NCBI GenBank assembly: GCA_934648845.1
Contig: CAKUFS010000010.1
Coordinates: 327 to 64,326, forward strand
From: an uncultured Eggerthellaceae bacterium
Lineage (GTDB): Bacteria; Actinomycetota; Coriobacteriia; Coriobacteriales; Eggerthellaceae
Reading direction: 5' to 3'
DNA: 64,000 nt
Shown here: positions 14,749-62,227 of the stretch, one piece after another
How positions within the stretch are numbered: position 1 is the first letter of the stretch
Layout of the letters: every line of letters begins with the position of its first letter
Notes under the pieces: generated by a model
The model's input: only the letters and a program-made list of their open reading frames with translations
What the model was told of the DNA's origin: nothing
Databases searched by the model: none
Position numbers and translations under genes: made by a program

Positions 14749-14982
14749 TCCTTTCTCCTTTCGTACAACAGAGCACCTTGGCTCATATACCCCATACCGC
14801 CGTTCAGACGCTATGCCAGCCATCAACGGCCGCTTCCGCACGGCAAGCGCCCGAACAACACCTGGTGTGCCATCGACGCATCACGCGCCGCTTGCAGTAC
14901 CCTACCTAACACCGGCGCGCCGTGATTCGCAACTTCCAGCCTCAACCCGCGTGGCCACGCTACCCGCGCAGCCCGCAAGGCC

Positions 14983-17307: not shown

Positions 17308-17429
17308 TGATAAAAATGGGGTACTTTTCTGTGGGTTTGCTACAGCTTATTTTTTCACGACCTGGGGAAACGTTGAAGGATCAGAAAAACAAAGGCAAAA
17401 ATCCACAGAAAAGTGGGTCGTTTTTATCA
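17308..17429 (+). mobile_element. MITE-like repeat family A, copy 2 (122 bp)
   Basis: It has the same ends and core as 13400-13521. Here the flanks make CATGATAAAAA ... TTTTTATCATG. Confidence 0.75.
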
Positions 17430-17550
17430 TGAGACACGCAACCTTGCAGCATTGCGCGTAAAACCGCCAAGGAGCGTGGGCTGTATTTTTTTGCCCGGCA
17501 GGGGTGTTGATCAACACTTAAACACGTTAAAAGCTGCTACCATCGCATAC

Positions 17551-18513
17551 ATGGATAACGTTTACTTGGGATACGACACCGCATGGTGGTATTGGAGCAA
17601 CGCGAAAAACGCGCCGAAAACGCTGGCGACAGCAGGAAGGAGCGATCGCTTGACAGATTGCGCCGTGAACCAGCGTGCTGTGCTTGATGCAGTGGGCGGT
17701 AGCGCTGTTCTTGCTAACCGGCACCTTTCTGTTCTTGTGGATAAGAAATCGATTACCAGCACAAAAAGAGTTGCTTTTCATCATAGTCCAACGCTGTTTC
17801 CCGATGGCTCATTTATCCAGCTTGCTCCCAGCATCTGCATCGCTTCACCCGAATTGAGCTTTCTGCAGTGCGCGGCAAATAAATCCCTGGTGAACACCAT
17901 GGAATACGGATTTCAACTTTGCGGCACCTTTGTCCCCGATGCCGCATCGAAGCACGGCGTGGCATCGCGGCCTTCCCTTACCAGCGCGGATAAACTGTCA
18001 GCGTTTCTTGATGAATGCAATGGGATGCGTGGCGTTTCGACTGCTCGCAAAGCGCTTATTTATGTGCTCAACGGAAGCGCTTCGCCGCGTGAAACCGCCG
18101 TATCGCTTCTGCTGACCCTTCCGTTGCGTATGGGAGGTTACGCCCTGCCATCGTTTGCCATCAATCATGAGCTGGCCGTCCCAAAAGAGCTGCAGGGGCT
18201 CACTCGTCGCAGGTCGCTGCGTGCTGATTTTTTCTGGAAAAACGCCTGCGTAGCGGCGGAGTACGATAGCGACATTGCACATCTGGGATCAGAGGAGCTT
18301 TGCAACGATGCAACGAAACGCATTGCCCTTCATCGGATGGGGTACACAACATTTGCTTTTACGCGTGTGCAAGTTGACAGCCTGATCCTTATGGACGAAA
18401 GCGTGGCGGCTCTTCGCCGCGAACTCGGAATCCGCATGCCTCAGCGCCTTCCCGTCGATTATCGAGCAAAACAAGCTGAACTGCGAAAACAACTAGGACT
18501 ACCATTCTTCTAG
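17551..18513 (+). CDS. DUF559 / Vsr-like endonuclease-fold domain protein, paralogue 1
   Basis: The C-terminus ADFFWKNACVAAEYDSDIAH...RIALHRMGYTTFAFT matches the D..vEyDG..H...D..R...L...G pattern of DUF559. It shares ASPELxFL, ELCGT/QLCGTF and LNGSASxRE blocks with 29493-30566. The start is moved to ATG 17551, because the first 46 codons of the track ORF lie in repeat A2. Confidence 0.7.
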   Translation: MDNVYLGYDTAWWYWSNAKNAPKTLATAGRSDRLTDCAVNQRAVLDAVGGSAVLANRHLSVLVDKKSITSTKRVAFHHSPTLFPDGSFIQLAPSICIASPELSFLQCAANKSLVNTMEYGFQLCGTFVPDAASKHGVASRPSLTSADKLSAFLDECNGMRGVSTARKALIYVLNGSASPRETAVSLLLTLPLRMGGYALPSFAINHELAVPKELQGLTRRRSLRADFFWKNACVAAEYDSDIAHLGSEELCNDATKRIALHRMGYTTFAFTRVQVDSLILMDESVAALRRELGIRMPQRLPVDYRAKQAELRKQLGLPFF

Positions 18514-18910
18514 CGACCATTCCGCCTGCTTGGTCGAGCCAGAGCGCGTCAACAGAGATATCACGGCAAATTACCATGAGCGTTGGTGCGCACCCTTCAG
18601 ATAATCGAAAACACCGTCGCAGCGACTGCACGTCATCGATGCTCGTTGAACGACCCATGCCCCATCCCCCACGATGAACGTTCGACGGAGCATGCGCCCC
18701 ATGCCTTCTCCGTCATCCGCATTTCCCCAGTTCGAGCTTCATTCTTCCTTCAAACCGTTCGCGCACAATCAGACTCCTTGACTTTCCACCTTCGTGCCCG
18801 AACCCTCCCTGCCACCTTTCCGTGGGCCTGTTCTGACATTCTTCGCCTTGACCTTCCGTCTTCACGTCCCGCGCCTTCTCCGCCACCAGGTGTCTTCGCG
18901 CCGCGCGTCG

Positions 18911-19032
18911 TGATAAAAATGGGGTACTTTTCTGTGGGTTTACCACAGCTTACTTTTTCACGACCTGGGGAAACACTGAAAAATCAGGAAAGCGAAGGCA
19001 AAAATCCACAGAAAAGTGGGTCGTTTTTATCA
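18911..19032 (+). mobile_element. MITE-like repeat family A, copy 3 (122 bp)
   Basis: It has the same element and orientation as copy 2. It is followed by two further partial CGTTTTT(A/G)TCA ends at about 19141 and about 19202. Confidence 0.75.
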
Positions 19033-19288
19033 TGGGGGAAATCGGACAGAGGACGAAAGGGGGCAATGCGAAGGAACGGACGGAAAGGTACCGTTGGATT
19101 GTCATCAAGAAAAGTAGGCGAAGGAACAGAGGGTAGGCATCGTTTTTATCACGAGAGAAGAAATCGGAAGGAAGCAGGCGAAGGGACAGAAGGACTGACA
19201 CCGTTTTTGTCATTAGGAATAGAAAAGAACGAAAAGAAGAAGTTGGTCTGATATTCTCAGGCAACAATCGGGTCGATAGAGGATCGGC

Positions 19289-21762: not shown

Positions 21763-21847
21763 AATCCCTTCTTTCTTTCTGCAGCGCTAACTGCGGTTTT
21801 AGTCTCTGAAGAGGGATAAAGCAGGCACCACGATGCCGCACAATCAA

Positions 21848-21965
21848 CCCCAGCTCTGTCCTTTAGCCTGAGAGATTCGGCGGCCAACCTGCGTGGGCGG
21901 CTCACCTTGCACCTTCGGCACTCATTCAAGAGTTCTCCAGAGCTTCCTCCGCACTCTGTTTCTCC
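21848..21965 (-). promoter_or_regulatory. Glycine riboswitch, single aptamer
   Basis: The minus strand reads GCTCTGGAGAACTCTTGAATGAGTGCCGAAGGTGCAAGGTGAGCCGCCCACGCAGGTTGGCCGCCGAATCTCTCAGGCTAAAGGACAGAGC. This carries the conserved CUCUGGAGA, GCCGAAGG.GCAA and AAUCUCUCAGGC.AAAGGACAGAG blocks of Rfam RF00504, closed by a GCTCTG/CAGAGC P1 stem. Confidence 0.85.
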
Positions 21966-26438: not shown

Positions 26439-26539
26439 GCGAAGGGCTGAGCCGAACTGCGACGCTTTGGATAAGTTGAGCGAGCCGCAAGTGAGAGGAA
26501 GCATTATCCAAGCGGAGTCGTGAGGTGAATGCCCTTCGC
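26439..26539. repeat. Long-hairpin intergenic repeat family C, copy 1 (~100 bp)
   Basis: GCGAAGGGCTGAGCCGAACTGCGACGCTTTGGATAAGTTGAGCGAGCCGCAAG...GAAGCATTATCCAAGCGGAGTCGTGAGGTGAATGCCCTTCGC. The outer stems (GAAGGGC/GCCCTTC) and inner stems (TTGGATAA/TTATCCAA) are complementary. Copies also lie at 39761 and 62024. Confidence 0.7.
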
Positions 26540-26837
26540 GCCCTTGCGCTCCGCATCTATTCCCTTTCGCCGGCAGCCTCTTCCCCATCAGCCGCTTACC
26601 GCCGCCAAGCGCCGCTTGCGGCAGAGCAACCCCGCCATTTGTGGAGCTTTCCGAATCTTCGCAAGAAATTCCTTACACAAGACCAAGACAATCCCTAAAC
26701 TAACAGGGTTTGACCGTCGGGCAAGACGACCTGGTCAACCAACTTTCGCGAACTCTTTCGCAGTTTTTTCTCTTCGAAAAAACAATAACCATACCAATAG
26801 CAATTATATAGAGACGCACATTTGAAACGAGGTATTT

Positions 26838-39872: not shown

Positions 39873-39918
39873 CGGACAACCCCGAATCGCCAAAAAGTGG
39901 CGGAGTCTTTCCGCCCTC

Positions 39919-40040
39919 TGATAAAAACGGCCCACTTTTCTGTGGGTTTGCCATAGCTTACTTTTTTGCGACCTGGGGAAATGTCGATTTTTAGCGATTG
40001 CAAGAAAGGAAATCCACCGAAAAGTGGGTCGTTTTTATCA
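39919..40040 (+). mobile_element. MITE-like repeat family A, copy 4 (122 bp, most diverged)
   Basis: TGATAAAAACGGCCCACTTTTCTGTGGGTTTGCC…GCGACCTGGGGAAATG…AAATCCACCGAAAAGTGGGTCGTTTTTATCA. Confidence 0.7.
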
Positions 40041-40103
40041 TGCCGCCCACGCTGTTGGGCGGCACCGCATCGGAAGCCGTGCAGCTGGATTGCGCGAACC
40101 GAA

Positions 40104-40136
40104 TTGTTGACAAAAGGTGGGGTAATTTGTCAACAA
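40104..40136. repeat. 33-nt palindrome D, copy 1
   Basis: TTGTTGACAAA-AGGTGGGGTAA-TTTGTCAACAA has a perfect 11-bp stem and an 11-nt loop. It lies 6 nt from the stop of the recN remnant. Confidence 0.8.
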
Positions 40137-40142
40137 TCAGCG

Positions 40143-40300
40143 CTACTCGCTATCGTCGTGGGATTGGGCGAGCAGCTCGGCAGCGTGAAGACGCGCTGCT
40201 TCGCTTTCGTCGCCCGCAAGCATGCGCGCGATAGCGAGGGTCCTCGATGCGAGCCCATCGACCGTCTCGCTTATTTTCGGACGAGGGGCTACCACTCTTG
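40143..40300 (-). pseudogene. Remnant of a recN 3' end (about the last 50 codons)
   Basis: Minus-strand translation gives …APRPKISETVDGLASRTLAIARMLAGDESEAARLHAAELLAQSHDDSE*. The intact RecN reads …LPETTITPVEGSARVDEIARMLAGDESEAARLHAAELLAQSHDANN*. At the DNA level 40092-40232 closely matches 42751-42886. Confidence 0.8.
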
Positions 40301-40406
40301 GGTCCGCACTTCACTGATGCTTTTCGCCGAGTGGAAACAATCTACCTGCGGAAACGCTGTTTAACTTAGACCTATCATCCAGCTGGTTTCAAGTTTTTCG
40401 AATCTA

Positions 40407-41519
40407 CTAGGATGATGCCTCCCTTGCTTTCAGCTTGTCTAAAATGCCTTCGGTTCTAGGATGACCCGTTGAAAGTCCAAGAAAGGACTGAAGCAAGAGG
40501 AGCTGCTTTATCTCGCTGCCACTCGTAGCGTTGCGTTCGTCCCCAGGAAGCCTCACTTGATCTCTTCTCAGCGTCTTCACGGGAATGCTTGAGGTTGACC
40601 ACTCGACCTCAATTGTAGATGCCTCAGTTTGTCCGTCGAGCAACTGCGATGTCTCGTGATTCTTCTTGCCGTTCTTAAAAGTACGCAGGTACTTGGCCTT
40701 GACCTGACAGTCTTCACAGCAGTATTTGGAATCGATGCGGCGGTTATACTCTCTCGGCGTGAAAAGTCTTCTGCACTCGGGGTTCTGGCAGAATCGGTAC
40801 GCATTGTTGAGCATTACGCCTTTAGCTAAGCAAATGAAAAGATACTGCATAAGGGTGCAGACTCCATCGCGGTTACCGTCTTCGATGATGTCAACCGGAT
40901 CGACCGAACCGCTCAGCACCGCATTGCAATATCTCACGCTTTCATGGACAAGCTCTTTATCGCACAGCCATTCTTGTTCGGTATAGCTATCTTGCAAGGT
41001 GCTTGTTATTGCCCTTATCGCCACCTGCGCGTCGCAGACAGCCTCCGCGACTTCCTCGACAGAAGCAACATGACAGGGAACAACATCTATCCCTGGTCTT
41101 CTCTTGTTGCGACCCTTTCTCCAGTTCTCGTTCACGACCTTGCTTAGGGTCTGGTTTTCGACCCCGTATCTCTCCCTGGCGATTATGTCAACATCGCCCA
41201 TGCCCTCGTAAAGGAACACGGTTTTCTTTATGCCAACGGAATCAAGATCATCGTAAACGTCCGTTGGGGTGACAAGCGCACTTACCGCTTCTGCTGCAAC
41301 GGAGTAGCCGAGGGATGCTCCATCGCTGTTGGAACCAACGGCGCGATTGGCAGCGCTGACGACAGGCGCTATTTCACCGAGGGCCTCGCAGTCGTAGTAA
41401 AGAGACTCGTGCCCAGCACCATCGTCGTGTACGGCAGCGCACCTGAAGACATCTTTGGCAAGTATCGTAAGGCGGGTATTGAGATCGTCCAGTTCGATTG
41501 CGAAACCACCTCCGCGCAC
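40407..41519 (-). CDS. Hypothetical 370-aa protein with a C-terminal CGNR-like zinc ribbon
   Basis: A long ORF in an AT-richer islet. FCQNPECRRLFTPREYNRRIDSKYCCEDCQVKAKYLR has the C-x4-C … C-x2-C spacing and basic tail of CGNR-type zinc fingers. The N-terminal ~260 aa are unassignable. The start is uncertain: the ATG at 41519 lies only 11 nt from the divergent toxin ATG. Confidence 0.6.
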   Translation of the reverse strand: MRGGGFAIELDDLNTRLTILAKDVFRCAAVHDDGAGHESLYYDCEALGEIAPVVSAANRAVGSNSDGASLGYSVAAEAVSALVTPTDVYDDLDSVGIKKTVFLYEGMGDVDIIARERYGVENQTLSKVVNENWRKGRNKRRPGIDVVPCHVASVEEVAEAVCDAQVAIRAITSTLQDSYTEQEWLCDKELVHESVRYCNAVLSGSVDPVDIIEDGNRDGVCTLMQYLFICLAKGVMLNNAYRFCQNPECRRLFTPREYNRRIDSKYCCEDCQVKAKYLRTFKNGKKNHETSQLLDGQTEASTIEVEWSTSSIPVKTLRRDQVRLPGDERNATSGSEIKQLLLLQSFLGLSTGHPRTEGILDKLKAREASS

Positions 41520-41530
41520 AAGGAGGTGAA

Positions 41531-41977
41531 ATGATGGGGACAGGCGAGCATGGCGGATTTGGGTACACCTCGGGTTCGAGCAAATCTAAGATCTTCACGA
41601 GGGTTTGGTATGAGGGGACCGTCAAGGTCGGAGAAAAGGTTCGCGATGTGAGTCGCAGAGTTTACCAACGCAACGATATTGATTTTGATTATTATGACCC
41701 CAAGGCGAAAAAGACAAATCTGCAGCGTATGATGGATGGTGACGCCCCAATCGGCAGCAATGGCAAACCGGTCCAGCTGCATCACGTTTTGCAGCAAGAA
41801 AGCGGACCTATGGCCGAGGTTCGGGAAGTCACTCACCGAGAGTATAAGCGGACCTTGCACGGGCTCGTGGGCAGAGGCAACAGCTTCAGGAACAATCCTG
41901 AGCTGAAGAAGCAGTACAACAACTTCAAGCGAGCCTACTGGATTTGGCGAGCTAAACAGTATCTTGAAGGGAGATAG
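41531..41977 (+). CDS. HNH/EndoVII-superfamily toxin nuclease domain protein (LHH / GH-E type), no delivery domain
   Basis: ATG 41531 follows CAAGGAGGTGAA. GSNGKPVQLHHVLQQESGPMAEVREVTHREYKRTLHGL carries the G…LHH…E…H signature of the polymorphic-toxin HNH/EndoVII clades. It is followed immediately by a SUKH immunity gene. Confidence 0.7.
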   Translation: MMGTGEHGGFGYTSGSSKSKIFTRVWYEGTVKVGEKVRDVSRRVYQRNDIDFDYYDPKAKKTNLQRMMDGDAPIGSNGKPVQLHHVLQQESGPMAEVREVTHREYKRTLHGLVGRGNSFRNNPELKKQYNNFKRAYWIWRAKQYLEGR

Positions 41978-41979
41978 CG

Positions 41980-42393
41980 ATGAACAAACAGATTGAGGCA
42001 GCAATATCCCAATGCAGTGGTAAAGATTCTTTCACAAAGATTGCCCCCACTCAGGAGATGCTCGCCGAGGCACAACAAAAGCTGGGATTCCCGCTGCCCG
42101 AGCAGTTTATCGAGTACCTTAACGCCTACAGCCACGGAGGAGTTGGCTTCGAGATTCTCGGCGTCGGTTTTGATGGAAGCATGGCCTTTCTCGAAGAGAC
42201 GCTTGAGTACCGTGAAGACGGCCTCCCAGCCAACCTTCTTGTCGTGGAGAACTGCGACGAATGGCTGTATTGCATTGATGCGAATTCGGGCGAAGTCGTG
42301 TCCTGGTATTTCGATGACGACTTGAGCGTCGATTACCCTTGCTTCGACGACTATCTGCTGGATCGCCTGAACGACGCTATCGAAAACCTGTAG
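41980..42393 (+). CDS. SMI1/KNR4 (SUKH-1) family immunity protein
   Basis: …APTQEMLAEAQQKLGFPLPEQFIEYLNAYSHGG…LVVENCDEWLYCIDANSGEVVSW is the typical SUKH-1 pattern. It begins 2 nt after the toxin stop. Confidence 0.75.
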   Translation: MNKQIEAAISQCSGKDSFTKIAPTQEMLAEAQQKLGFPLPEQFIEYLNAYSHGGVGFEILGVGFDGSMAFLEETLEYREDGLPANLLVVENCDEWLYCIDANSGEVVSWYFDDDLSVDYPCFDDYLLDRLNDAIENL

Positions 42394-42427
42394 CTCGAAG
42401 TCTTAGAGGAACTTCAGGAGGTTTAAG

Positions 42428-42466
42428 AAACCCCTCTGGCAAGCGAAAGCTGCCAGAGGGGTTTGT
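42428..42466 (+). terminator. Rho-independent terminator after the immunity gene
   Basis: AAACCCCTCTGGCA-AGCGAAAGC-TGCCAGAGGGGTTTGT. Confidence 0.8.
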
Positions 42467-42758
42467 CATGTTCAACCGGGAAAACGTGCGCTCAAGGCAC
42501 TCCCACTCAGTGATTTCCAGTCTGAACGCTTCGGATTTTACCGTCTCGTACGCTCTGGCATCGGCTCGTGCCGCCTATGTTGTTTCATGCATAGGGGCAG
42601 TTCACGAATGGCCTCGGTTGTTGGAACTCACTTGGACGGAATTGGTAAAGATCGTTGCGATGACCGCTTGCCACCGCATTGTTGAGACAACAATGCAAGT
42701 TGCGCAACAAGGCACGGATGTTAAAAAGACCCCGTCACTTTTTAACATCCGCGCGAAA

Positions 42759-42791
42759 TTGTTGACAAAAGGTGGGGTAATTTGTCAACAA
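42759..42791. repeat. 33-nt palindrome D, copy 2
   Basis: It is identical to copy 1 and lies 6 nt from the recN stop codon. Confidence 0.8.
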
Positions 42792-42797
42792 ACAGCG

Positions 42798-44588
42798 CTA
42801 GTTGTTCGCATCATGGGATTGGGCAAGCAGCTCGGCCGCATGAAGACGCGCCGCTTCGCTTTCGTCGCCCGCCAGCATGCGCGCAATCTCATCAACACGC
42901 GCAGACCCCTCAACAGGGGTAATAGTGGTTTCAGGAAGCGCGCCACCCGTTTTTGCCACCACATAGTGGCATTGCGCGCGCACCGCCACCTGCGGCAAAT
43001 GCGTTACCACAAGCACCTGACGCGTTGTTGCAAGGTCGGCAAGAACATCCGCAAGTGCCACCGCCGTAGCACCGCCCACACCGGCGTCAACTTCATCGAA
43101 GATGAGCGTTTCAGCCGTATCGGCTTGACCCAGCACCACGCGCAACGCCAACATGACGCGGCTCACTTCGCCGCCCGATGCAATGCGCGCCAACGGACGT
43201 GCTGCCATTTCCGAACCAGGTCGGAACAAAAATTCAACCGTCGAAGGACCCACTTTCGTCCACGCCGCACGCGGTTGGCGCTCGATTTCGCATACGAGCT
43301 GCGCCGATCCCATGCACAAACGCTTCATCTGGTCGCATACCGCGCGCGCAAACCGAGGAGCCGCCGCTTTTCGTGCTTTATCCAACACATCTGCCGCCTG
43401 CACTAATGCCGCTTCCGCCTGATCAACCGCTGCTTGCGCCGCCTTCAAACGCGCCTCGGAATCATCCACGGCACCCACTAAATCGGCCGCCGCATCGCGC
43501 GCCGCCAGCACATCCTCCATACGCGGCCCGTACAAACGCAACAGTCGCTGCATAGCACCCACACGTTCTTGCATGCGCGCCAACTCAGCAGCATCCAGCT
43601 CAATGGAATCGCGATACGCACGCACATCGGCAGCAACATCTTCGGCAATATACACGGCATCGCGCAGCGATTTCGCATACGCCTGCAGCGAGTCATCAAA
43701 GCGACATGCCTGGTCAAGCACGTAAATCGCGCTGTTCAAAGCATCCAGCGCGCTTACCTCTTCACCATCGCCCGAAAGCGCACGGTACGCCCCCTCGGAA
43801 GCATTCACCAACGCTTCCGCGTTTTCCGCCTTTGCCAGCGCTTCAACAAGCTCTTCGTATTCGCCCGGCTGCGGATCAACCTCGTTCACGCTGCGAAGAA
43901 CAAACCGCGCCTCGTCAAGCTGTGCCGACGAAGAAGACGCCGCCGCACGCACGTCGTCAAGTGCAGCTTGCGCGGCCTGCGCTGCCGTAAAAGCTGCCCT
44001 GTACGTTTTGAGCGGCGCTTCCACCTGGTCTTTTGCCCAAGCATCAAGAAACGTCACATGATTTGCGGGCTTCAACAAGCGCTGATGCTCATGCTGACCG
44101 CACAGGTCAACCACAGGGCCAATCGTCGCCGCCAGCTGCGCTGCGCTGGCCATATGCCCGTCAAGCGTCACGCGCGAGCGACCGTCTGCTCCCACGCGAC
44201 GCGTTACCACAATGTCGCGCTCGCATGCGTCGGCCGCAGCGGCGTCGGCAGTGCCGCCATCGCTGGTACCCGCGCTGCTGGCATCCGCGCCAGCAGCTCC
44301 AGCACCCACACCGCCTACACCAGTGGGCGCATCTTCCCATGCCGAATCAGCATCAGTGCCTTCACCTGCGCTTTCGCGCACGAAAAAGCGACCCGAAACC
44401 ACCAGCGAGTCTTCCCCATCACGCACCATCTGCGCACTGGCACGCTCGCCCATAAGCAACTTGCACGCCGAAAGCAGCGCCGTTTTGCCCGCGCCCGTCT
44501 CGCCCGTAAGCACCGTCAGCCCCGCGCACGGCGTAAGCGTGGCGTTGCGGATAAGCGCCAAATTCTCAACATGGATTTCATCGATCAT
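42798..44588 (-). CDS. recN: DNA repair protein RecN
   Basis: MIDEIHVENLALIRNATL…GETGAGKTALL (Walker A), coiled-coil middle, and LIFDEVDAGVGG. It contains a ~45-aa G/A/D/S insertion near residue 75. Confidence 0.93.
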   Translation of the reverse strand: MIDEIHVENLALIRNATLTPCAGLTVLTGETGAGKTALLSACKLLMGERASAQMVRDGEDSLVVSGRFFVRESAGEGTDADSAWEDAPTGVGGVGAGAAGADASSAGTSDGGTADAAAADACERDIVVTRRVGADGRSRVTLDGHMASAAQLAATIGPVVDLCGQHEHQRLLKPANHVTFLDAWAKDQVEAPLKTYRAAFTAAQAAQAALDDVRAAASSSSAQLDEARFVLRSVNEVDPQPGEYEELVEALAKAENAEALVNASEGAYRALSGDGEEVSALDALNSAIYVLDQACRFDDSLQAYAKSLRDAVYIAEDVAADVRAYRDSIELDAAELARMQERVGAMQRLLRLYGPRMEDVLAARDAAADLVGAVDDSEARLKAAQAAVDQAEAALVQAADVLDKARKAAAPRFARAVCDQMKRLCMGSAQLVCEIERQPRAAWTKVGPSTVEFLFRPGSEMAARPLARIASGGEVSRVMLALRVVLGQADTAETLIFDEVDAGVGGATAVALADVLADLATTRQVLVVTHLPQVAVRAQCHYVVAKTGGALPETTITPVEGSARVDEIARMLAGDESEAARLHAAELLAQSHDANN

Positions 44589-45146: not shown

Positions 45147-45316
45147 CAGCACGAACCACGCGGAAGGCATCGGCGCCCAAGCAGGCGCCTGCACCCGGCC
45201 CCATCACGCGCTGCGCGCGCCGGGCGGGCTCACGAGCCCCTAAAAAACTCAGGGCTTGGAAGCCGAACAACTTCCAAGCCCTGTCATATGAACGCCCGCC
45301 ACGGTCACGCCAGCAA

Positions 45317-47605
45317 TCAGTCATCCCACCCGTAAAGAGCCGCGTACTGAATAGCGAATGCATTCGTTGCGTCAACATCGTTGTTCCACTTCACATCGGC
45401 GCGAGAATACATGCTTTCGTAATCAGCGCGGTCGGCGTACGTATCGGGAGACACCACCATATCGTAGGCAATCTGCGCATCAACGATGTTAAGCACACCG
45501 TTTCCATTCACATCGCCGTCGAGTTTCGCATGACTTCCGATGAAATACCCGGGCACGGCGACGCCGTTATCAACGCGCGCACGCGAAACATCGGTGCACG
45601 ATGCATCAAATACGGTGCCTTCGCCGCCTTCAAGCCTGGTGCAGCCGGCGAACATGCCTTCGGATTGCGTAACCTGCTTTACCGCCAGTTTCGATGCGAA
45701 AATGGCATCAAGCCAGCTGCAATTCGCGAACATCAGCCTCATATCGGTCACGCGCGACGTGTCCAACTCGGAAATTTCCACCGAATCCAGCCCCGTGCAG
45801 CCAGCGAACATGCTGTAACAGGTTTTCGCCGCAACGCCCTGACTTATTCTGACGTATCCAATATCCTCGCGATAACGATACCAGGGCACCGCCTCGCAAT
45901 CTTCCCCCCAGTCATCCAGCACACCCTGGGTTAGACCCGACAACGGACGAATCTGAAGAACATCCGAGCAATACAAATCGTCATAGTCAACGAACCACTC
46001 GCACGTGCCGCTGCGCTTCCAACCTTCGGTAACGCGATGCGCCGTGTACATCATTGCGCCCGATGTGCGATTGGCATTTGCCTCAGCCACTTGGGCTGTT
46101 GTCTCATACAAAACACCCGTAGTATCCATCCAAACGCATTCATCCGCGAAGCTCTTGTCCATATGAACACCTGCAGGCAGCGTCACATTCGCAAGAGAGG
46201 TGCAATTTTCGAACATGCCCTCCGTTTCCACCGATGGCGAGAACGACCAACCCGAAAGGTCAATTGAAATCAGCGACGTGCAGCAATCGAACATGTAATG
46301 CATGTCCGTTACGCCAGACAAATCCAAACCCGAAAAATCAACCGACGTCAGATTGTTGCAGCCCACAAAAAGACTCCGGCATGTTTTGGCCACCACACCT
46401 TGTTTGAAGCGAGCCGATATTATTTCATCGGCGTGCTCACTCCAGGGCGCGCCGTAATGATTTTCCTGCCAATCCGGCAAAGCACCCTTCCCGTAACCGG
46501 GCAGCGGACGAACCGTGAGCAGGCCGTCATCGTCTATCTTCCATTCGCATCCGCCGCTTTGCGTCCATCCCGAGGAAGGCATTGCATCGGTGGTCGTGTA
46601 TGTTTCCGCACCTGAAACGCGCTCGACGTTCGCCCAAAGCATCTCTTCGTTCGAATCATATACCGCGCCTGTCGTATCTACCCACCGAGAATCATGATGG
46701 GCGCCCATGGGGGACGTTCTGAGATACGCAAGAGTATTATTATCGGTCAAATCAAGCCCCGCTGGCAACGTGAGCTGCGACACAAGCGGCGCGCCCGCAA
46801 AGGAATACATCGCATTCGTTATCGCAGAGCCGGTAAACGACGAAATGTCCACCGATTCAAGCGACAAGCAATTCTGAAACAAGCCATACATGTTGGTCAC
46901 GCGCGCAGCATTGATTCCCGATAAGTTGATGCTCTTTATTGACGAGCACTCATTAAACATGGAGCTCATACTGGTCACATTCGATGCGTCAACACCTTGG
47001 AAATTTACCGTTTGCAAGGCTGCGCAACCATAGAACATGCACGTCATGTCAGTCACCCGAGAGGTATCCAAGCCCGAAAGGTCAACAGACACTAAATTAG
47101 TCCATTCCGAGAACATGTGACGACACGTCTCAGCAACAACACCAGGCTCAATGACTACGGACGTAATAGAAGCGCGAAACGATTCGTCGCGCAGCCAGGG
47201 CGCTTGCTCGGTGCGCCACAAATCCAACACGCCCGAAGCGCCGTTGCCCAAAGGACGGACGGTAAGCAGGCCGGCGTCATCGACGCGCCATTCGCACGTG
47301 CCCAATTGGTTCCATCCCGCGGTGAGTGTCGCATCAGTAGCAGAGGCGGGGTCTGCCGAAGGACCTGCTGTCGGGGCAGATGCGTGAGGCGATGCGGACT
47401 CGGTAGCCGCAGCTACCGAAGACGATGCAGGCTCGGTAGCCGCAGCGGCGGAAACAACCGCCGAGCGCGCAGCTTCTTCCGCGCTGCCTTCCGCGTCTAC
47501 CGCAAGAACTTGCACGGGGAAAAGCCCCGACACTAAGACGATCGAAAGAAGAGCGCTCGCGCACGCACGCGCCGAAGAGTGAGCCGCAGAGGGCTGCTTT
47601 TTCAT
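45317..47605 (-). CDS. Secreted BspA-type (DUF285-like) leucine-rich-repeat protein with C-terminal dockerin-like module, copy 1
   Basis: The start is set at ATG 47605 (MKKQPSAAHSSARACASALLSIVLVSG… signal). Three modules run GWxxSGxCEWxxDDxGLLxxRPL… and then repeats of LDTSxVTDMxxMFxxCxxL. The C-terminus GDVNGNGVLNIVDAQIAYDMV…DVKWNNDVDATNAFAIQ resembles two dockerin Ca-binding loops. Confidence 0.8.
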   Translation of the reverse strand: MKKQPSAAHSSARACASALLSIVLVSGLFPVQVLAVDAEGSAEEAARSAVVSAAAATEPASSSVAAATESASPHASAPTAGPSADPASATDATLTAGWNQLGTCEWRVDDAGLLTVRPLGNGASGVLDLWRTEQAPWLRDESFRASITSVVIEPGVVAETCRHMFSEWTNLVSVDLSGLDTSRVTDMTCMFYGCAALQTVNFQGVDASNVTSMSSMFNECSSIKSINLSGINAARVTNMYGLFQNCLSLESVDISSFTGSAITNAMYSFAGAPLVSQLTLPAGLDLTDNNTLAYLRTSPMGAHHDSRWVDTTGAVYDSNEEMLWANVERVSGAETYTTTDAMPSSGWTQSGGCEWKIDDDGLLTVRPLPGYGKGALPDWQENHYGAPWSEHADEIISARFKQGVVAKTCRSLFVGCNNLTSVDFSGLDLSGVTDMHYMFDCCTSLISIDLSGWSFSPSVETEGMFENCTSLANVTLPAGVHMDKSFADECVWMDTTGVLYETTAQVAEANANRTSGAMMYTAHRVTEGWKRSGTCEWFVDYDDLYCSDVLQIRPLSGLTQGVLDDWGEDCEAVPWYRYREDIGYVRISQGVAAKTCYSMFAGCTGLDSVEISELDTSRVTDMRLMFANCSWLDAIFASKLAVKQVTQSEGMFAGCTRLEGGEGTVFDASCTDVSRARVDNGVAVPGYFIGSHAKLDGDVNGNGVLNIVDAQIAYDMVVSPDTYADRADYESMYSRADVKWNNDVDATNAFAIQYAALYGWDD

Positions 47606-47704
47606 AGAGTTCCTTCCCAACGATATTGTTTTTATCGTTTCGCAGTATAGCCGAAGCAAGCCAGATTGCAGCCGCTCGAGAGCGCGTAAAAAACGAAAGG
47701 GCGC

Positions 47705-47832
47705 TTAATTGGTTGGCTGCGCGGCCACGCGCGCATCCGCCTGAGCTTCGGCCACGGGACAGCCCGCAAACGCGTCGGACTCCATGCCCCGCAGGGCGCG
47801 TCCACGTCCAGCATCTCGCCCGCCGCAGTCAC
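47705..47832 (-). pseudogene. Chimeric remnant: flavoprotein 3' end fragment fused to the 3' end of the LRR_5 gene
   Basis: The minus strand encodes …AAGEMLDVDAPCG (compare 51133-52623, …FAAGEMLDVDAPCGG). In another frame it continues as GMESDAFAGCPVAEAQ… (compare 50372-51109, …GMEPDAFVGCPVAQTQ). Confidence 0.7.
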
Positions 47833-47840
47833 GCCAGCTA

Positions 47841-50105
47841 TCAGTCATCCCACCCGCAAAGAACAGCGCGCTGAATGGCGAACGCATTCGTTGCGTCAAC
47901 ATCGTTGTTCCACTTCACGTCGGCGCGAGAATACATGCTTTCGTAATCGGCGCAATCGGCGTACGTCTCGGGCGACTTCACCATATCGTAGGCAATCTGC
48001 GCGTCAACAATGTTAAGCGCGCCGTTTCCGCTCACATCGCCGTCAAGCTTCGCATGTCTTCCGATGAAATACCCGGGTGCGACGGCGCCGTTATCAACGC
48101 GCGCACGCGAAATGTCGGTATATGACGCGTTAAATGCCGTACCGCAGCCGCCTTCAAGCGCGGTGCAACCGGCAAACATGCCTTCTGATTGCGTGACCTG
48201 CTTTATGGCCAGCTTCGATGCGAAAATGGTTTCAAGCTGCTCGCAGTTGGCAAACATCAGCCGCATATCGGCTACCCGCGAAGTATCCAGCTCGGAAATT
48301 ACTGCCGAGTACAAGTTGGTGCAGCCATAGAACATGCCATAACAGGTTTTCGCTGCAACGCCCTGCTCGATTCGAATGCACTCGATTCCGTCTCGCCACG
48401 GGTACCAGGGAACGTCCTCGTAATTGCCCGACCAGTCGGCCAGCGTTCCTTGCGTAAACCCAGGAAGCGGACGAATAACAAGCTCTCCTTCGCTCATCGA
48501 CCATTCGCAGGTGCCGCATCGATCCCAACCACCCGTAGGACGAATCGCCGTATACGTCATGCTTCCCGTTTCGCGCGCAGCGTTGGCTGCAAGCATATCG
48601 GCGGTCGAGCTGTAAAGCGCGCCCGTTGCGTCTTTCCAGGAAAGATTATCTGCGGCATCATCGACCAGGCGCACTCCCGCAGGCAAAATCAACTCCGTCA
48701 AAGATGAGCAGTCACGAAACATCCGGGTCGTATCCGCTTTCTGCACGTTATCTATGCCGGTAAGGTCAACGCGAGTAAGCTTTGCGCAACTATCGAACAT
48801 ATAGCGCATATCTGTAACTTGGGATGTATCCAACCCCGACAGATCAAAGGAGCTCAAGTTGTAGCAATTCTCGAAAAGACCGAAGCACGTTTTGGCAATA
48901 ACGCCTTGCTCGAATCGGGCTGAAACAATGTCTTCGCTTTTCCCAGACCAGGGTGCGTTATAGACGCCTTCACCCCAATCAGGCAATACCCCTTGCTCGA
49001 AGCCAGGAAGCGGGCGAACAACCAGCAAACCGCTGCTATCCACCATCCATTCGCAGCCGCCGCTTTGCGTCCAGCCCGAAGAAGGCGCTGCATTGGTAAC
49101 GGTATATGTTTCCGCGCCCGTTGTACGCATCGCATTCGCGCGAAGCATCTCATCGGTTGAACCATATACCGCGCCCGTCGTATCTACCCAGCGAAAATCT
49201 TGGCGGCCTCCTGTTGAAGACACGCCGATATACGCATGGGATTCTTGCTCCGTCAAGTTCAATTCCGCTGGCAGCGTTAGCTGCGAAAGAGAATCAGCTC
49301 CCATGAAGGAATACCCCGCATTGGTTATAGCGGAAGCACTGAACGACGAGATGTCCACCGACTCAAGGGCAGCGCAATCGCGGAACAAATCATACATATC
49401 CGTCATGTGCGCGGCGTTGATTCCCGATAAATCGATTCTTTTTATCGACGAGCATCCCCTGAACATGCCATACATGCTAGTCACGCAGGATGCATCGATG
49501 CCCGAGAAATCCACCGACTCAAGGGCTGTACAATTACGAAACATGAGAGCCATGTCAGTCACCTGAGAGGTATCCAAGCCCGACAAGTCAGCCGAAATCA
49601 ACGATGCGCAATCGGCAAACATAAAGCGACACGTAGGCGTAGACACCCCCGACTCAATGCGCACCGCCGTGATAGAGGCGCGCGTATCTTCGCTGGCCGC
49701 CCATGGCGCATAGCTAGGGCTCCACGAATCCAACACGCCCGAAGCGCCGTTGCCCAAAGGACGAATGGTAAGCAGGCCGGCGTCATCGATGCGCCATTCG
49801 CAGGTGCCCGACTTGTTCCATCCCTCGGTAAGCGTCGCGTCTGTAGCAGGGGCGGGGTCTGCCGAAAATTTCACTTCCGCGGGTGACGCAGCTACATCGT
49901 CTGCGGAAGCGGTTGCAGCAACGTCAAGCAACGTAGGTGTCGTTTCCGCAAATGCATTCGTCGTAAGAGTCGATGACGCAATTGCAGCAGATGCATCTGT
50001 CGCAAACACGCGCGCAGGGAAGAGCCCCGACGCCAAGGTGATCGAAAGAAGAACGCTTACGCATGCACGCGCCGAAGAGTGAACCGCAGAGGAATGTTTT
50101 TTCAT
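47841..50105 (-). CDS. Secreted BspA-type leucine-rich-repeat protein with C-terminal dockerin-like module, copy 2
   Basis: It is a paralogue of 45317-47605 with the same three-module layout, signal peptide and dockerin-like tail. The 5' leader and 3' flank are also duplicated. Confidence 0.8.
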   Translation of the reverse strand: MKKHSSAVHSSARACVSVLLSITLASGLFPARVFATDASAAIASSTLTTNAFAETTPTLLDVAATASADDVAASPAEVKFSADPAPATDATLTEGWNKSGTCEWRIDDAGLLTIRPLGNGASGVLDSWSPSYAPWAASEDTRASITAVRIESGVSTPTCRFMFADCASLISADLSGLDTSQVTDMALMFRNCTALESVDFSGIDASCVTSMYGMFRGCSSIKRIDLSGINAAHMTDMYDLFRDCAALESVDISSFSASAITNAGYSFMGADSLSQLTLPAELNLTEQESHAYIGVSSTGGRQDFRWVDTTGAVYGSTDEMLRANAMRTTGAETYTVTNAAPSSGWTQSGGCEWMVDSSGLLVVRPLPGFEQGVLPDWGEGVYNAPWSGKSEDIVSARFEQGVIAKTCFGLFENCYNLSSFDLSGLDTSQVTDMRYMFDSCAKLTRVDLTGIDNVQKADTTRMFRDCSSLTELILPAGVRLVDDAADNLSWKDATGALYSSTADMLAANAARETGSMTYTAIRPTGGWDRCGTCEWSMSEGELVIRPLPGFTQGTLADWSGNYEDVPWYPWRDGIECIRIEQGVAAKTCYGMFYGCTNLYSAVISELDTSRVADMRLMFANCEQLETIFASKLAIKQVTQSEGMFAGCTALEGGCGTAFNASYTDISRARVDNGAVAPGYFIGRHAKLDGDVSGNGALNIVDAQIAYDMVKSPETYADCADYESMYSRADVKWNNDVDATNAFAIQRAVLCGWDD

Positions 50106-50371: not shown

Positions 50372-51109
50372 TTATTCGTTTTCCTGCGTCTGCGCCACAG
50401 GGCATCCCACAAACGCATCGGGCTCCATGCCCTGCACGGCATCGGACATGGTCACGCGCGCCAGACGCGTGCAGCCCGCAAACGTGCGCTCTTCAATGTA
50501 GGAAATCTCATCGGGCAAATCGATACCCTCAAGGCTCGTGCAGTTTTCAAAGCACCGGCGACCAATCCAACCCACCGAAGCAGGAAGCTCAACGGCCGCA
50601 AGCGCTGCGCAATTCGCGAACACTTCGTCTTCCAACGTGTCAAGCGTCTCCGGCAAAACCACTTCGCGCAGGCGCGCGCAATCACGAAACGCTGCATTGC
50701 CCAGAATACGCACGCCATCAGGTATTTCAACACGCTCAAGACCGCGACACCCTTTGAATGCCTCATCCCCCACACGCTCGACTCCGCACGGCAGCGCTAC
50801 CGATGAAAGCGCGTTGCAGCGCTGAAACGCCTTGGAGCCAATCTCGCGCACGCCTTCCGGAAACACGATTTCGCGCAAACCTGTGCAGCCGGAAAACGCG
50901 CCGTCCTCAATGACTTCAAGCGTAGAGGGCAGCTGCACTTCTTTGAGCTGCATGCAGGCGTTGAACGCAAACGCGCCAATGCGGCGCACGCCTTCCGGGA
51001 TAATCAGGCGCGACAGCATGAACTTGTTCGTGAAGACGCGCGGCGCAATGTCGGTTACGCCGGGGGGAATGCACACCACCGCTTCGTCGTCGTGATAGGC
51101 ATTCAGCAT
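50372..51109 (-). CDS. Leucine-rich-repeat (LRR_5 / BspA-like) protein without a signal peptide
   Basis: The start is set at ATG 51109 (MLNAYHDDEAVVCIPPGV…). It has about nine ~23-aa repeats of the form IPxGVxxIGxxAFxxCxxLxxVxLP. Confidence 0.75.
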   Translation of the reverse strand: MLNAYHDDEAVVCIPPGVTDIAPRVFTNKFMLSRLIIPEGVRRIGAFAFNACMQLKEVQLPSTLEVIEDGAFSGCTGLREIVFPEGVREIGSKAFQRCNALSSVALPCGVERVGDEAFKGCRGLERVEIPDGVRILGNAAFRDCARLREVVLPETLDTLEDEVFANCAALAAVELPASVGWIGRRCFENCTSLEGIDLPDEISYIEERTFAGCTRLARVTMSDAVQGMEPDAFVGCPVAQTQENE

Positions 51110-51132
51110 AATATCGAAGCTTGACACGCCTT

Positions 51133-52623
51133 CTACCTGGCCTTTCTTTGGTTTTTGAAGGTAGTGGCGGCGGCAGAAGCGCCCGCCAACGTGCCGCTCG
51201 CCCACGCCCAGTGCAAGTTGTACCCGCCGCAGGGCGCGTCCACGTCCAGCATCTCGCCCGCCGCGAACAGCCCCGCATACTGCTTGCACTCCATGGTGGT
51301 CGCATCGAACGCTTCGCACAAGAAGCCGCCGCAATGCACCTGGCACTGCTTGGGGTCACCCGCACCTTCTACGGCAACCTTGAAGCGCTTTGCCACGCGC
51401 GACAGACGATACATGTTCTGCGCCGATGCAGGGTCTTCCGGCCGCAGCTTGAGCGTTTTCAGCAGCGCCTCGGCCACCAAGGGAAGCATCATGCCGCGCG
51501 TAATATCCTGACACGCGGCTTCCCTGCCACTCAGTGCGCGCGTGGCGGCGGCGCGTTCATGCAGGTAGGATTGCAGTTCATCCCTGGTCATGTCGGGGAA
51601 CAGGTCAAGTGCCACCGTATCACCCGGCTGAGCGAATCGCGAGAGGTTGAATATCGCAATGCCCGAAAGCCCGTATTTGCGGAACAGCACTTCGCCGCGC
51701 TCCTGTGCTAGCGGCGCGCCATCGCGCTCAAGGGCAGCCTGGCAACGCACACGAATGTTATCCAGCGCGCGGATGTCGCGCGTGTCGGTTTTCAGCGGGC
51801 CAAGCACGGACCTTGCAGGCGCATACGGCAAGTCGCTGGGAAGAAGCTCGCGCGCAACGGAGCCACCAACAGCGCAAATGACCTGGTGCGCGCGCTGAAA
51901 CGACCCATCGGCCATGCGCAACGTGTACGGTTTTCCCGGCGCGCGCGGCGGCTCGACGGAGCGCACGCGCATGTTGCAGCATTCTTTGACACCCAGTCCT
52001 TGTGCGGCAGCGCGCAGCACATCAAGAACAGTCGAGGCTTTACCTGTTATGGGGAAAAGACGGCCTTCTCCTTCTTCGCGCCAACAAAGACCCAAGCCGG
52101 CGAAGAAATCGAGGACGGCATTTTGCGTCTGCTGACCAGCGGATGCACATGAGCGCGGCCAAAATGCCGCCTCTTCAAGAGCGGCAAGAGATGCACCCAC
52201 GAACGCAGCATTCTGGTAGAGACCGTTTGAGATCACGGCGTTCGAGAAATTGCAGCGACCATTGCCCGTTGCCAGAATCGAGCGTCCCACGCGGTCGTCT
52301 GCCTCGAACAGCGCGATGTTCGCAGGGCGAACGCCCGCGACCGAACGGGAGGTTGCGGCGGCATTGTCAACAGCCGCACGACAAGCCGCAACTTCGTTGG
52401 AGCCCGCACTTGTGCCGGCACCAACGTCTGCTGCAGCGTGCACGATGGCATCGGCACCTGCGCGGGCAGACGCGCTGACACTTGCATCGCCGGCGCCTGC
52501 ACAAGCGCCTGCAACATCTTCCCCGTCCAGCGCGCGGCACTTCCATGCGGCAGAAATGGCGGCCGCCAAACCAGCTGCGCCGCCACCAATGATGATCACA
52601 TCGTATGTTTCGTTTTCGTTCAT
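51133..52623 (-). CDS. HI0933/BaiN-like FAD-dependent oxidoreductase (aminoacetone-oxidase family) with a low-complexity insertion
   Basis: The start is set at ATG 52623 (MNENETYDVIIIGGGAAGLAAA, GxGxxG). The C-terminus is GEMLDVDAPCGGYNLHWAWASG. About 70 aa of A/G/D/S insert follow the dinucleotide-binding motif. Confidence 0.82.
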   Translation of the reverse strand: MNENETYDVIIIGGGAAGLAAAISAAWKCRALDGEDVAGACAGAGDASVSASARAGADAIVHAAADVGAGTSAGSNEVAACRAAVDNAAATSRSVAGVRPANIALFEADDRVGRSILATGNGRCNFSNAVISNGLYQNAAFVGASLAALEEAAFWPRSCASAGQQTQNAVLDFFAGLGLCWREEGEGRLFPITGKASTVLDVLRAAAQGLGVKECCNMRVRSVEPPRAPGKPYTLRMADGSFQRAHQVICAVGGSVARELLPSDLPYAPARSVLGPLKTDTRDIRALDNIRVRCQAALERDGAPLAQERGEVLFRKYGLSGIAIFNLSRFAQPGDTVALDLFPDMTRDELQSYLHERAAATRALSGREAACQDITRGMMLPLVAEALLKTLKLRPEDPASAQNMYRLSRVAKRFKVAVEGAGDPKQCQVHCGGFLCEAFDATTMECKQYAGLFAAGEMLDVDAPCGGYNLHWAWASGTLAGASAAATTFKNQRKAR

Positions 52624-53906: not shown

Positions 53907-53911
53907 TTCAA

Positions 53912-53946
53912 TTGTTGACAAAAGGTGGGGGCGGCGTCAAGCAAGA
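53912..53946. repeat. Palindrome D, copy 3 (degenerate right arm)
   Basis: TTGTTGACAAAAGGTGGGGGCGGCGTCAAGCAAGA ends 1-2 nt from the ilvE stop. Confidence 0.6.
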
Positions 53947-56720: not shown

Positions 56721-56974
56721 CGGGCTTGTCTGCCAGCTTTCCCACTACCCCCGAAGAGCAATCAGAAATCAATTTCAAAGCCGCCCGAAAGCAAATCGAT
56801 TCCATTAAAACCACGACCAAAACGGATTGCGCCATTCAGCCCCACGCCCCAAAATCACACCAAAATACACCACCAGACCACCGAATCACGTAAAAATAAC
56901 GATGCCGCAATACGCGAATACTCACATTTTTTCTTGCTCTTCGCTGTATGCCGCCCTACAATAGCACCATTGAA

Positions 56975-57150
56975 TTCTGTTTCAGGGCGAGGTGAAAATC
57001 CTCACTGGCGGTAATTGAACGGCGTGGATTCTTTGCAAAAAGAGCCCGTGAACGCAAAAGCCCGCGACCCTTGCGCAGCAAAAACTGGCAAGGCTGATTC
57101 CGTGAAAATCGGGAGCCAACGGTCACAGTCCGGATGAAAGAGGCGGATAT
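56975..57150 (+). promoter_or_regulatory. FMN riboswitch (RFN element)
   Basis: TTTCAGGGCGAGGTGAAAATCCTCACTGGCGGTAA…AGAGCCCGTGA…GATTCCGTGAAAATCGGGAGCCAACGGTCACAGTCCGGATGAAAGAGGCGG matches the conserved RF00050 blocks (AGGG.GGUGAAAUUCC..ACCGGCGGUA, AGCCCG.GA, GCCGACAGU.AAAGUC.GGAUG.GAGA). It lies upstream of a RibU-type ECF S component. Confidence 0.9.
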
Positions 57151-60816: not shown

Positions 60817-60871
60817 AACCCAGAATCCGCACCGCCAACAGCGCCTGCAGGGCGCCCAAACGGGATGAAAA

Positions 60872-60904
60872 TTGTTGACAAAAGGTGGGGTAATTTGTCA
60901 ACAA
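60872..60904. repeat. 33-nt palindrome D, copy 4
   Basis: It is identical to copies 1 and 2 and lies 17 nt from the stop of the DUF1292 gene. Confidence 0.8.
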
Positions 60905-60921
60905 TGCGGATGGGAGCAGAT

Positions 60922-62023: not shown

Positions 62024-62128
62024 GGTGGCGCAGGATTGAGCCGAACTGCTGAGCCTGAATAAGTTGAACGAACCCCAGCCAAGAAGAAGCATTATCCGGG
62101 CGAAGTCGTGAAGTGAACGCCTTGTGCC
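62024..62128. repeat. Long-hairpin repeat family C, copy 3
   Basis: GGCGCAGGATTGAGCCGAACTGCTGAGCCTGAATAAGTTGAACGAACCCCAGCCAAGAAGAAGCATTATCCGGGCGAAGTCGTGAAGTGAACGCCTTGTGCC lies between convergent genes. Confidence 0.65.
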
Positions 62129-62227
62129 GCCGCGCGAACGACTACCGTCACAATAGCGCCGCAAAGCCCAGCACGCAAACATAGAAAGGCGCCTGACCAG
62201 CTGGCCAAGCGCCCCATAATTCAATCC

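Follow-up and report, generated by a model that had tools for sequence, protein, structure and literature searches.

A 2.65 kb islet lies between the convergent recN and DUF6179 genes in the window analysed here, which is the whole 64,000-nucleotide stretch of contig CAKUFS010000010.1 from an uncultured Eggerthellaceae bacterium. It holds a predicted LHH nuclease ('toxin') gene, a SUKH-5 immunity gene and parts of two further genes, and it is bracketed by a direct duplication of the recN 3′ end and of the palindrome behind it (palindrome D). The islet appears to be a decayed copy of a small Coriobacteriia gene module that moves laterally, and the duplication is best explained, with somewhat better than even confidence, as a by-product of recombination between lineages and not as the mark of an integrase. 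A long gene-3′-end duplication around an islet is usually read as the attachment-site (att) scar of an integrase. One homologous and one illegitimate crossover between lineages can mimic this footprint, and genome-mining pipelines should take such mimicry into account when they infer integrative elements from flanking repeats.

The duplicated recN end and its sister arrangements

The two copies of the repeat (40102–40232 and 42757–42887) align without gaps and are identical at 117 of 131 positions (89.3%; BLAST E = 5e-46). Both have the order 36 nt palindrome D, recN stop codon and last 32 recN codons. An earlier note on this DNA had described the bracketing with coordinates off by a few bases, and the formal alignment bears it out. 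The note had also taken the left copy for a dead 3′ fragment and the right copy for the completion of an intact recN, in agreement with the 596 aa gene found there, and had called the islet AT-richer, in agreement with a GC content of 0.49–0.53 vs 0.58–0.62 in the flanks. Its claim that RecN similarity continues at the protein level to about 40300 did not hold: a profile hidden Markov model of 28 RecN C-termini extends only about 4 residues past the DNA repeat, and the translation of 40233–40406 alone gives no match to this profile.

When five other lineages are compared, the left recN fragment is 85–90% identical to their recN ends, the same identity range as these ends show among themselves, and the left copy is just one more allele of a polymorphic recN end. 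The last 4–5 recN codons differ in every lineage. In three contigs (contigs are given as L numbers) the recN stop region contains a 16 nt tandem duplication (L001, ~10215–10240; L002, ~8680–8705; L081, ~4875–4900), so that two alternative C-terminal tails stand in series, an AANK-stop remnant behind a DSE-stop or DNK-stop end.

The RecN protein of the window groups with those of uncultured Eggerthellaceae metagenome-assembled genomes from the human gut, and those of L001, L002, L003, L004 and L011 are 93–97% identical. The earlier note had proposed a search for recN loci without the islet, and two were found. In L011, the recN end, palindrome D and a flank with both dispersed repeats of the window (C2 and A4) are colinear with the outer flanks of the window, and the islet is missing. 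L007 is more distant; its recN and DUF6179 genes converge across a gap of 78 bp that holds a palindrome and nothing else. This palindrome (11610–11650, directly after recN) is of like shape and other sequence (GTTTGTGACAA-N13-TTGTCACAAAC). Because islet-free recN ends exist in L011 and L007, the insertion is real, and the comparison of these loci shows the islet to be a genuine strain-variable insertion. Since C2 adjoins the islet-free recN end in L011, and A4 is also present at that empty site, both repeats belong to the host flank; their pile-up outside the left boundary, as described previously, stands, and they are not part of the islet.

The gap between recN and the DUF6179 gene is a hot spot. 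In L005 it holds an AT-rich, unrelated gene of 270 aa without a Pfam match (6601–7413). In L002 the same palindrome is followed by other cargo (8746–10253), which reaches the contig end and includes a 288 aa gene. The only homologue of this gene belongs to an island that also carries HipA, DUF4926/DUF6883 and an N6_N4 methyltransferase.

The same islet is found in sister lineages, with other junctions. L081 (a 68.6 kb contig of the L001 lineage) and L082 (from another sample) have it at the same place, with the same 820 bp internal deletion as in the window, and without duplicated recN codons. Compared with the empty L011, they represent a clean insertion inside palindrome D, downstream of the recN stop, and read flank-CCG-AATTGTTGACAAAA/TCAAATGGTCGTCGCAGCGCTCGAT/AGCGAG...islet...GGCTGCGCGA-AATTGTTGACAAAA/GGTGGGGTAATTTGTCAACAAT-recN. 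The junctions are A4 flank-AATTGTTGACAAAA/TCAAATGG on the left and GCGCGA-AATTGTTGACAAAA/GGTGGGG..-recN on the right. The repeat consists of only 14 nt (AATTGTTGACAAAA), i.e., the left arm of the palindrome plus AA, and could be a target duplication. L003 has an undeleted islet at the same place, also without duplicated recN codons; its left junction opens with TCAAATGGTCGTCGCAGC like that of L081 and L082, and ends ..GTCGCAGCGCGCGAT/AGCGAGG (also given as ..GCAGCGCGCGAT/AGCGAGG). On the other side of the L003 islet is a 210 nt repeat, 99% identical, of host (A4) flank and the left half of the palindrome, so that A4 stands on both sides of the islet; this duplication appears to be a derived feature of L003 itself.

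In the window, the left junction comprises the whole palindrome and 96 nt of recN, ending ..GCATGCGCGCGAT/AGCGAGG, and this recN-codon junction was seen only in the window's arrangement (the window and contig L083). The left junction without recN codons, as in L003 and L081, is termed U-type. L003 combines the absence of the deletion with a U-type junction, L081 the deletion with a U-type junction, and the window the deletion with recN codons; parsimony over these three states makes the recN-codon junction the derived one. At its inner edge, the window repeat falls exactly on GCGCGCGAT, 32 codons from the recN end, where recN reads ..GCATGCGCGC(A/G)AT/CTCATC.

Identity of recN between lineages, measured in 150 nt windows, ranges from 76% to 99%. 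Mosaicism was seen on comparing the window with L002, L003, L004 and L081; against L002, for example, identity is 99% at 44577–44428 and 81% at 43455–43306. The tail of the window recN (43020–42865) differs from L004 at 2 of 155 positions (98.7% identical), and upstream of this tail there are 77 mismatches in ~680 nt (~89% identical). The L004 contig stops inside the 131 nt repeat. The recN mosaic, this L004-like tail and the synonymous divergence of the toxin and immunity genes each point, independently of the junctions, to inter-lineage exchange.

Judged by synonymous sites, the toxin/immunity half is several-fold younger than the genes that flank the islet. Synonymous divergence (dS) between the window and L003 is 0.26–0.34 for flanking genes, 0.08 for the toxin and 0.10 for the immunity gene; between the window and L001 it is 0.19 for recN and 0.06–0.07 for toxin and immunity. 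Over both comparisons, the LHH gene (0.06–0.08) and the SUKH-5 gene (0.07–0.10) together span 0.06–0.10, vs 0.19–0.34 for recN, dtd, an ELP3-like gene and the DUF6179 gene. This lower divergence shows at least the toxin/immunity half to be younger than the DNA around it. Against L003 and L001, the LHH gene has a dN/dS (ratio of nonsynonymous to synonymous divergence) of about 0.2.

The favoured origin would begin with an islet-bearing DNA segment from a related lineage that recombined into an islet-free chromosome. One crossover, homologous, would have taken place inside recN near 43020–43035, and the other would have been an illegitimate join at GCGCGCGAT, which is common to recN and the left end of the islet. 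The palindrome and recN tail of the recipient would have been left behind as the dead left copy, and the recN tail and palindrome of the donor would have come in as the live right copy, with no integrase needed for the transfer step. Such a transfer explains the left copy as an ordinary allele of the polymorphic recN end. We infer that the dead left fragment is the displaced native recN end of the recipient, and the right copy probably arrived together with the islet. The primary insertion, which is marked by the 14 nt repeat in the palindrome, would most likely have been the work of a trans-acting site-specific recombinase.

Homology-facilitated illegitimate recombination during DNA uptake proceeds by one homologous anchor and one microhomology join. 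The proposed transfer resembles it in having a crossover in a conserved gene (recN), a 9 nt microhomology join and foreign DNA beside the anchor, and differs in that the segment of the recipient was kept as a duplication and in that the event is read here from sequence comparison.

Several points weigh against an origin by inter-lineage transfer. No donor with the window's exact islet and a U-type junction was seen, and the best candidate, L004, breaks off in the repeat. The direction of the junction change is a matter of parsimony over three lineages, and the 9 nt, GC-rich microhomology could be a coincidence. A 106 nt segment of L003 that is replaced in the window (segment U) has no match anywhere; when it was compared with the 108 nt of the window, the score was reached by 92 of 2000 shuffles, a marginal similarity to the recN end, and a very old recN-like origin of segment U is conceivable. 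Elsewhere, the module is bracketed by long gene-3′-end duplications, at dnaB (220 nt at 98.6%) and in a tRNA-Arg array, which a dedicated integration mechanism would also explain.

The module and its decayed copy in the window

An intact module is ~3.4 kb long and consists of a ~390 aa zinc-ribbon gene divergent from an operon of DUF4417, LHH nuclease and SUKH-5 immunity genes. The ~390 aa family has 36 members (376–397 aa) and is confined to Coriobacteriia; a metagenome scan gave 3 loci and a viral scan none. Behind DUF4417, the module contigs carry either LHH and SUKH-5 or another pair of small genes. Widespread and strongly conserved, DUF4417 proteins of 220 aa gave 955 matches, with 63–85% identity among the best 120 listed. 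In other metagenomic contigs, the DUF4417-LHH-SUKH-5 operon stands without the 390 aa gene, beside AAA_15/RloB genes, and a related DUF4417 operon is found in Firmicutes-type contigs beside RelA_SpoT genes, sometimes behind an XRE/ImmA-like pair.

The copy in the window has lost part of this content. A deletion of 820 bp, common to the window, L081 and L082, took the 5′ ends of both the zinc-ribbon gene and DUF4417, together with the promoter region between them. The 370 aa zinc-ribbon protein of the earlier note is thus not a native gene product but a chimera resulting from this deletion, an in-frame fusion of antisense DUF4417 sequence and the C-terminal part of the 390 aa gene, in which residues ~98 to 370 correspond to residues 118–392 of the ~390 aa family. 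The undeleted L003 has a longer islet with a 392 aa zinc-ribbon gene and a DUF4417 gene that is full length but for one in-frame stop.

The toxin and immunity genes of the window were recognised correctly in the earlier note. They are 2 nt apart, and the 159 aa LHH protein carries its domain at residues 73–154 (homologues, 147–153 aa). No domain besides LHH was found by Pfam, and no secretion or delivery region. As in polymorphic toxin systems (PF14411/PF14567), an LHH HNH/EndoVII nuclease domain is directly followed by a SUKH-5 immunity gene; unlike polymorphic toxins, the protein is short, has no delivery or trafficking domain, and is encoded by the middle gene of a three-gene operon that in Firmicutes also stands beside defence-type genes. 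Because there is no delivery region and the pair belongs to this conserved operon, a role in addiction or defence may be as likely as one in interbacterial killing.

The module appears to be mobile, as it is found at unrelated loci: between CW_binding_2 and PNP_UDP_1 genes in L048, adjoining groESL in L055, on one side of dnaB in L062 and on the other in L066, within an array of tRNA-Arg fragments in L051, and in two further settings in L060 and L061. The repeat in L066 (220 nt, 98.6% identical; 5360–5579 and 9211–9430) is made up of the final 164 nt of dnaB and a further 56 nt. In the related genome of L062–L065, the module is oriented the other way, occupies the HAD-dnaB intergenic region and has no repeat. 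The two are independent insertions, one on each side of dnaB. In L062, the divergence of the intergenic regions was too great for the exact insertion point upstream of dnaB to be placed.

Three tRNA-Arg(CCU) 3′ parts are present in each of L051, L057 and L058, with identity starting at the anticodon loop. An arsenic-resistance cassette and the module lie between these parts (in L051 at 5022–5194, 8275–8483 and 11243–11446), with a tyrosine-integrase island on the left side of the array and ~100 nt of conserved sequence ahead of each fragment. The tRNA-Arg(CCU) reading in L051 was made by inspection, and ARAGORN and Rfam made no call. Three repeats in L060 bound the module and an AAA_14/DUF4143 gene. 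The repeats of the Firmicutes-type L067 and L068 are tRNA-like ends accompanied by GGTGT(T/G)AC iterons. They bracket a unit of XRE, ImmA-like, DUF4417, 151 aa and 156 aa genes (L067, 5573–5619/8649–8693; L068, 1771–1872/4846–4946) and hold a tRNA-like T-loop and 3′ end (TTCAAATCCGGCTCGCACCTC). No flanking repeat was found in the contexts of L055, L061 and L062. Site-specific recombinases acting in trans would most likely be the agents of insertion in the repeat-bounded arrays of L051, L060, L067 and L068.

A recurrent 3 kb module of this kind, with no recognisable recombinase, placed at different conserved genes and often framed closely by repeats, offers a defined candidate for testing how small cassettes move in gut Coriobacteriia.

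Other explanations of the duplication

Integrative elements that target the 3′ ends of tRNA and protein genes provide a surrogate end for the gene, and their derivatives that lack an integrase and stand in tandem arrays are known as cis-mobilisable elements (CIMEs). Integration of this type at the recN locus would involve an attP that copies the recN 3′ end and palindrome, a tyrosine-type integrase acting in trans or since lost, and an element that supplies the live gene end. Like such elements and CIMEs, the islet is bracketed by a duplicated 3′ end and leaves the gene intact. Target-derived direct repeats resembling attL and attR are present (131 nt in the window, 14 nt in L081 and L082), and the palindrome would be a plausible core site. 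The duplicated dnaB end in L066, the tRNA-Arg(CCU) 3′ parts of L051, L057 and L058 with a tyrosine-integrase island in tandem, and the Firmicutes DUF4417 cassettes between tRNA-like 3′ ends with iterons are all consistent with it.

This origin is nevertheless unlikely. L081, L082 and L003 carry the same islet at the same place with a far junction free of recN codons, so that a surrogate gene end is not supplied in all carriers, and the primary site lies downstream of the stop codon. The inner boundary of the repeat coincides with the microhomology to the islet end. A second recN end was found in none of 35 other Coriobacteriia recN loci searched, and palindrome D was not found in viral contigs. 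No integrase or transposase was detected by Pfam in the islet or in 20 further ORFs of the window (~9–20 kb and 29–55 kb), and the absence of an integrase or recombinase from the islet agrees with the earlier note. Of that note's reading of an element inserted at the recN 3′ end, the insertion stands, and an att site made of recN codons is not supported, the duplicated codons being absent from L081, L082 and L003.

The end product expected from inter-lineage transfer, with the same microhomology, could also result from Campbell-type reinsertion. A circle carrying palindrome D and 96 nt of recN would have arisen by aberrant excision at GCGCGCGAT, and would have entered the chromosome by a single homologous crossover within the 131 nt. 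Such a course fits the lack of a recombinase and the length of the repeats, which measure 131 nt in the window, 210 nt (99%) in L003 and 220 nt (98.6%) in L066, and excision and reintegration are established for recombinase-less islands with direct repeats (PMC5426353). In E. coli, the microcin H47 island excises without a recombinase of its own and without RecA, and host functions provide the mobility of islands of this kind (PMC5426353). Like this island and other 'unconventional circularizable structures' (PMC5426353), the islet is small, has long imperfect direct repeats and no recombinase gene of its own. Unlike the H47 type, its repeat is a duplicated gene end with a terminator palindrome, secondary to the 14 nt repeat of sister lineages, and no excision product was seen. 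In behaviour, the closest known cases would be the recombinase-less islands with long direct repeats (H47) and integrase-less tandem cassettes at att sites.

Reinsertion of a circle is, however, rather unlikely. No circular form was seen, and the contigs of one period (L052, L053 and L083) are the outcome of a de Bruijn graph at an exact repeat. A crossover within the 131 nt alone would also leave the recN breakpoint near 43020–43035, which lies outside the repeat, unexplained. A 27 nt terminal overlap of L052 was considered as a sign of a circle and rejected, since a graph with k = 31 gives exactly this at a 33 nt exact repeat.

An autonomous module has also to be weighed, in which the ~390 aa zinc-ribbon protein, alone or together with DUF4417, would be a novel type of recombinase that targets palindromes and gene 3′ ends. 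A repeat-bounded unit of 2.6–3.9 kb holds the module alone in at least five independent contexts, the 390 aa gene and DUF4417 are its constant core, and the 390 aa gene adjoins the distal repeat, in the same direction as the target gene, in both the window and L066. An AlphaFold2 model of the 390 aa protein (pLDDT 72, pTM 0.76) has no Foldseek match in PDB or BFVD. This explanation is improbable. No similarity to a recombinase, transposase or nuclease family was found with Pfam, PHROGs, PADLOC and Foldseek; PADLOC gave no match for the 390 aa protein, DUF4417, LHH or SUKH-5, and the Foldseek matches of the DUF4417 model (pLDDT 84.5) are weak and TIM-barrel-like. In PHROGs, DUF4417 falls in one family labelled 'nuclease' and one of unknown function. 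DUF4417-LHH-SUKH-5 operons are common without the 390 aa gene, in settings like defence islands, and three module contexts (L055, L061, L062) have no flanking repeat. The arrays of L051 and L060 mix the module with unrelated cassettes between the same repeats, as trans-acting integrases would. No transposase domain was detected in the islet, inspection of the L081 ends revealed no terminal inverted repeat, and no recombinase was found within the repeat-bounded module copies of L003, L051, L060 and L066. It is similarly doubtful that the 390 aa protein and DUF4417 are the integration machinery of a new class of 3 kb modules that occupy terminator palindromes and gene 3′ ends (recN, dnaB, tRNA-Arg) and are stabilised by the nuclease/immunity pair.

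A chimeric join of two strains, conceivable for a metagenomic assembly of a strain-rich population in which repeats break contigs, has a negligible probability: the arrangement is not an assembly artefact because the independently assembled Logan contig L083 (run ERR7738591) matches 40109–42741 of the window at 100% identity, including the fragment/islet junction, an ORF spanning this junction is on record on three or more contigs, and a k-mer join could not be created from a 9 nt overlap.

Palindromes, dispersed repeats and other features of the window

Palindrome D also follows recN in L001, L002, L003 and L011, and is the native hairpin behind the recN stop codon. A further copy in the window lies at 60870–60905 and a partial one at 53910–53945. 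It is a dispersed element at gene 3′ ends, with other copies in L011 (1209–1241 and 8717–8749) and L003 (705–735); the two direct copies of L011 bracket a 7.5 kb ABC-transporter/TetR block that the window does not have. Elements that exploit Xer recombination (IMEX) reside at the single chromosomal dif site and are flanked by dif-like sites of 28 bp. Unlike these, palindrome D has 12 bp arms and an 11 nt spacer, and occurs at least three times in 64 kb at gene 3′ ends.

The coordinates of the islet and its surroundings are given in the table. The last ~60 nt of the islet right end are also found beside the different cargo of L002 (77%). The hairpin-rich segment between this end and palindrome D folds with about −70 kcal/mol; its counterpart is 19 nt in L001 and L081, and a copy of the A4 flank in L003. 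The terminal 30 nt hairpin of this segment recurs in inverted orientation at 10000–10029.

Table. Coordinates of the recN islet, its borders and adjacent repeats in the window.
Feature	Position	Strand	Description
Dispersed repeat C2	39767–39876		Family D4/D8; further copies at 26439–26548 and 62056–62136
Dispersed repeat A4	39917–40045		129 nt, internal inverted repeats; family D1, 4 copies in the window
Left repeat copy	40102–40232		Left copy of palindrome D and dead recN 3′ fragment
Palindrome D, left copy	40102–40137		36 nt, AATTGTTGACAAAAGGTGGGGTAATTTGTCAACAAT; 12 bp stem, 11 nt loop
Dead recN 3′ fragment	40143–40232	−	Last ~30 recN codons and stop; 5′-truncated, ends ...IARMLAGDESEAARLHAAELLAQSHDDSE-stop
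Inner repeat edge, GCGCGCGAT	40224–40232		9 nt microhomology common to recN and the left end of the islet
Islet left end, non-coding	40233–40406		Found elsewhere only in the islets of L003 (85.6% identical) and L081/L082
Truncated zinc-ribbon gene	40410–41234	−	Codons 118–392 of the ~390 aa family; no Pfam match; tblastn 93% identity to P0001 residues 118–392
DUF4417 remnant	41223–41528	+	Codons 118–219 of 220; tblastn to P0037; 820 bp deletion junction at left end
LHH (HNH/EndoVII) nuclease 'toxin', intact	41498–41977	+	Pfam PF14411, E = 3e-27
SUKH-5 / SMI1-KNR4 immunity protein, intact	41980–42393	+	Pfam PF14567, E = 5e-27
Islet right end	42394–42558		Terminator-like hairpin; conserved in L001/L081 (90%) and L003 (88%)
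Hairpin-rich segment, about 192 nt	42559–42756		Separates the islet right end from palindrome D; seen only in the window's arrangement, including L083
Right repeat copy	42757–42887		Palindrome D and live recN end
recN	42798–44588	−	596 aa, intact; Pfam SMC_N and AAA_23; apparent inter-lineage mosaic
recN tail of apparent recent common ancestry with L004	42865–43035	−	Breakpoint near 43020–43035

The A4 family, which resembles miniature inverted-repeat transposable elements (MITEs) or repetitive extragenic palindromes (REPs), has its four 129 nt copies at 13398–13526, 17306–17434, 18909–19037 and 39917–40045. Three of them flank ORFs without a Pfam match (13399–14925, 17413–18513 and 18583–19251).

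Tandem paralogues of surface proteins of the BspA-type leucine-rich repeat (LRR)/DUF285 kind are encoded at 45317–47659, 47841–50105 and 50372–51346. Their 300 nt repeats are 70–89% identical (89% for 45293–45592 and 47817–48116; 70% for 46469–46768 and 48975–49274). Two riboswitches score above the Rfam gathering threshold, an FMN riboswitch at 56974–57149 (+) and a glycine riboswitch at 21846–21950 (−).

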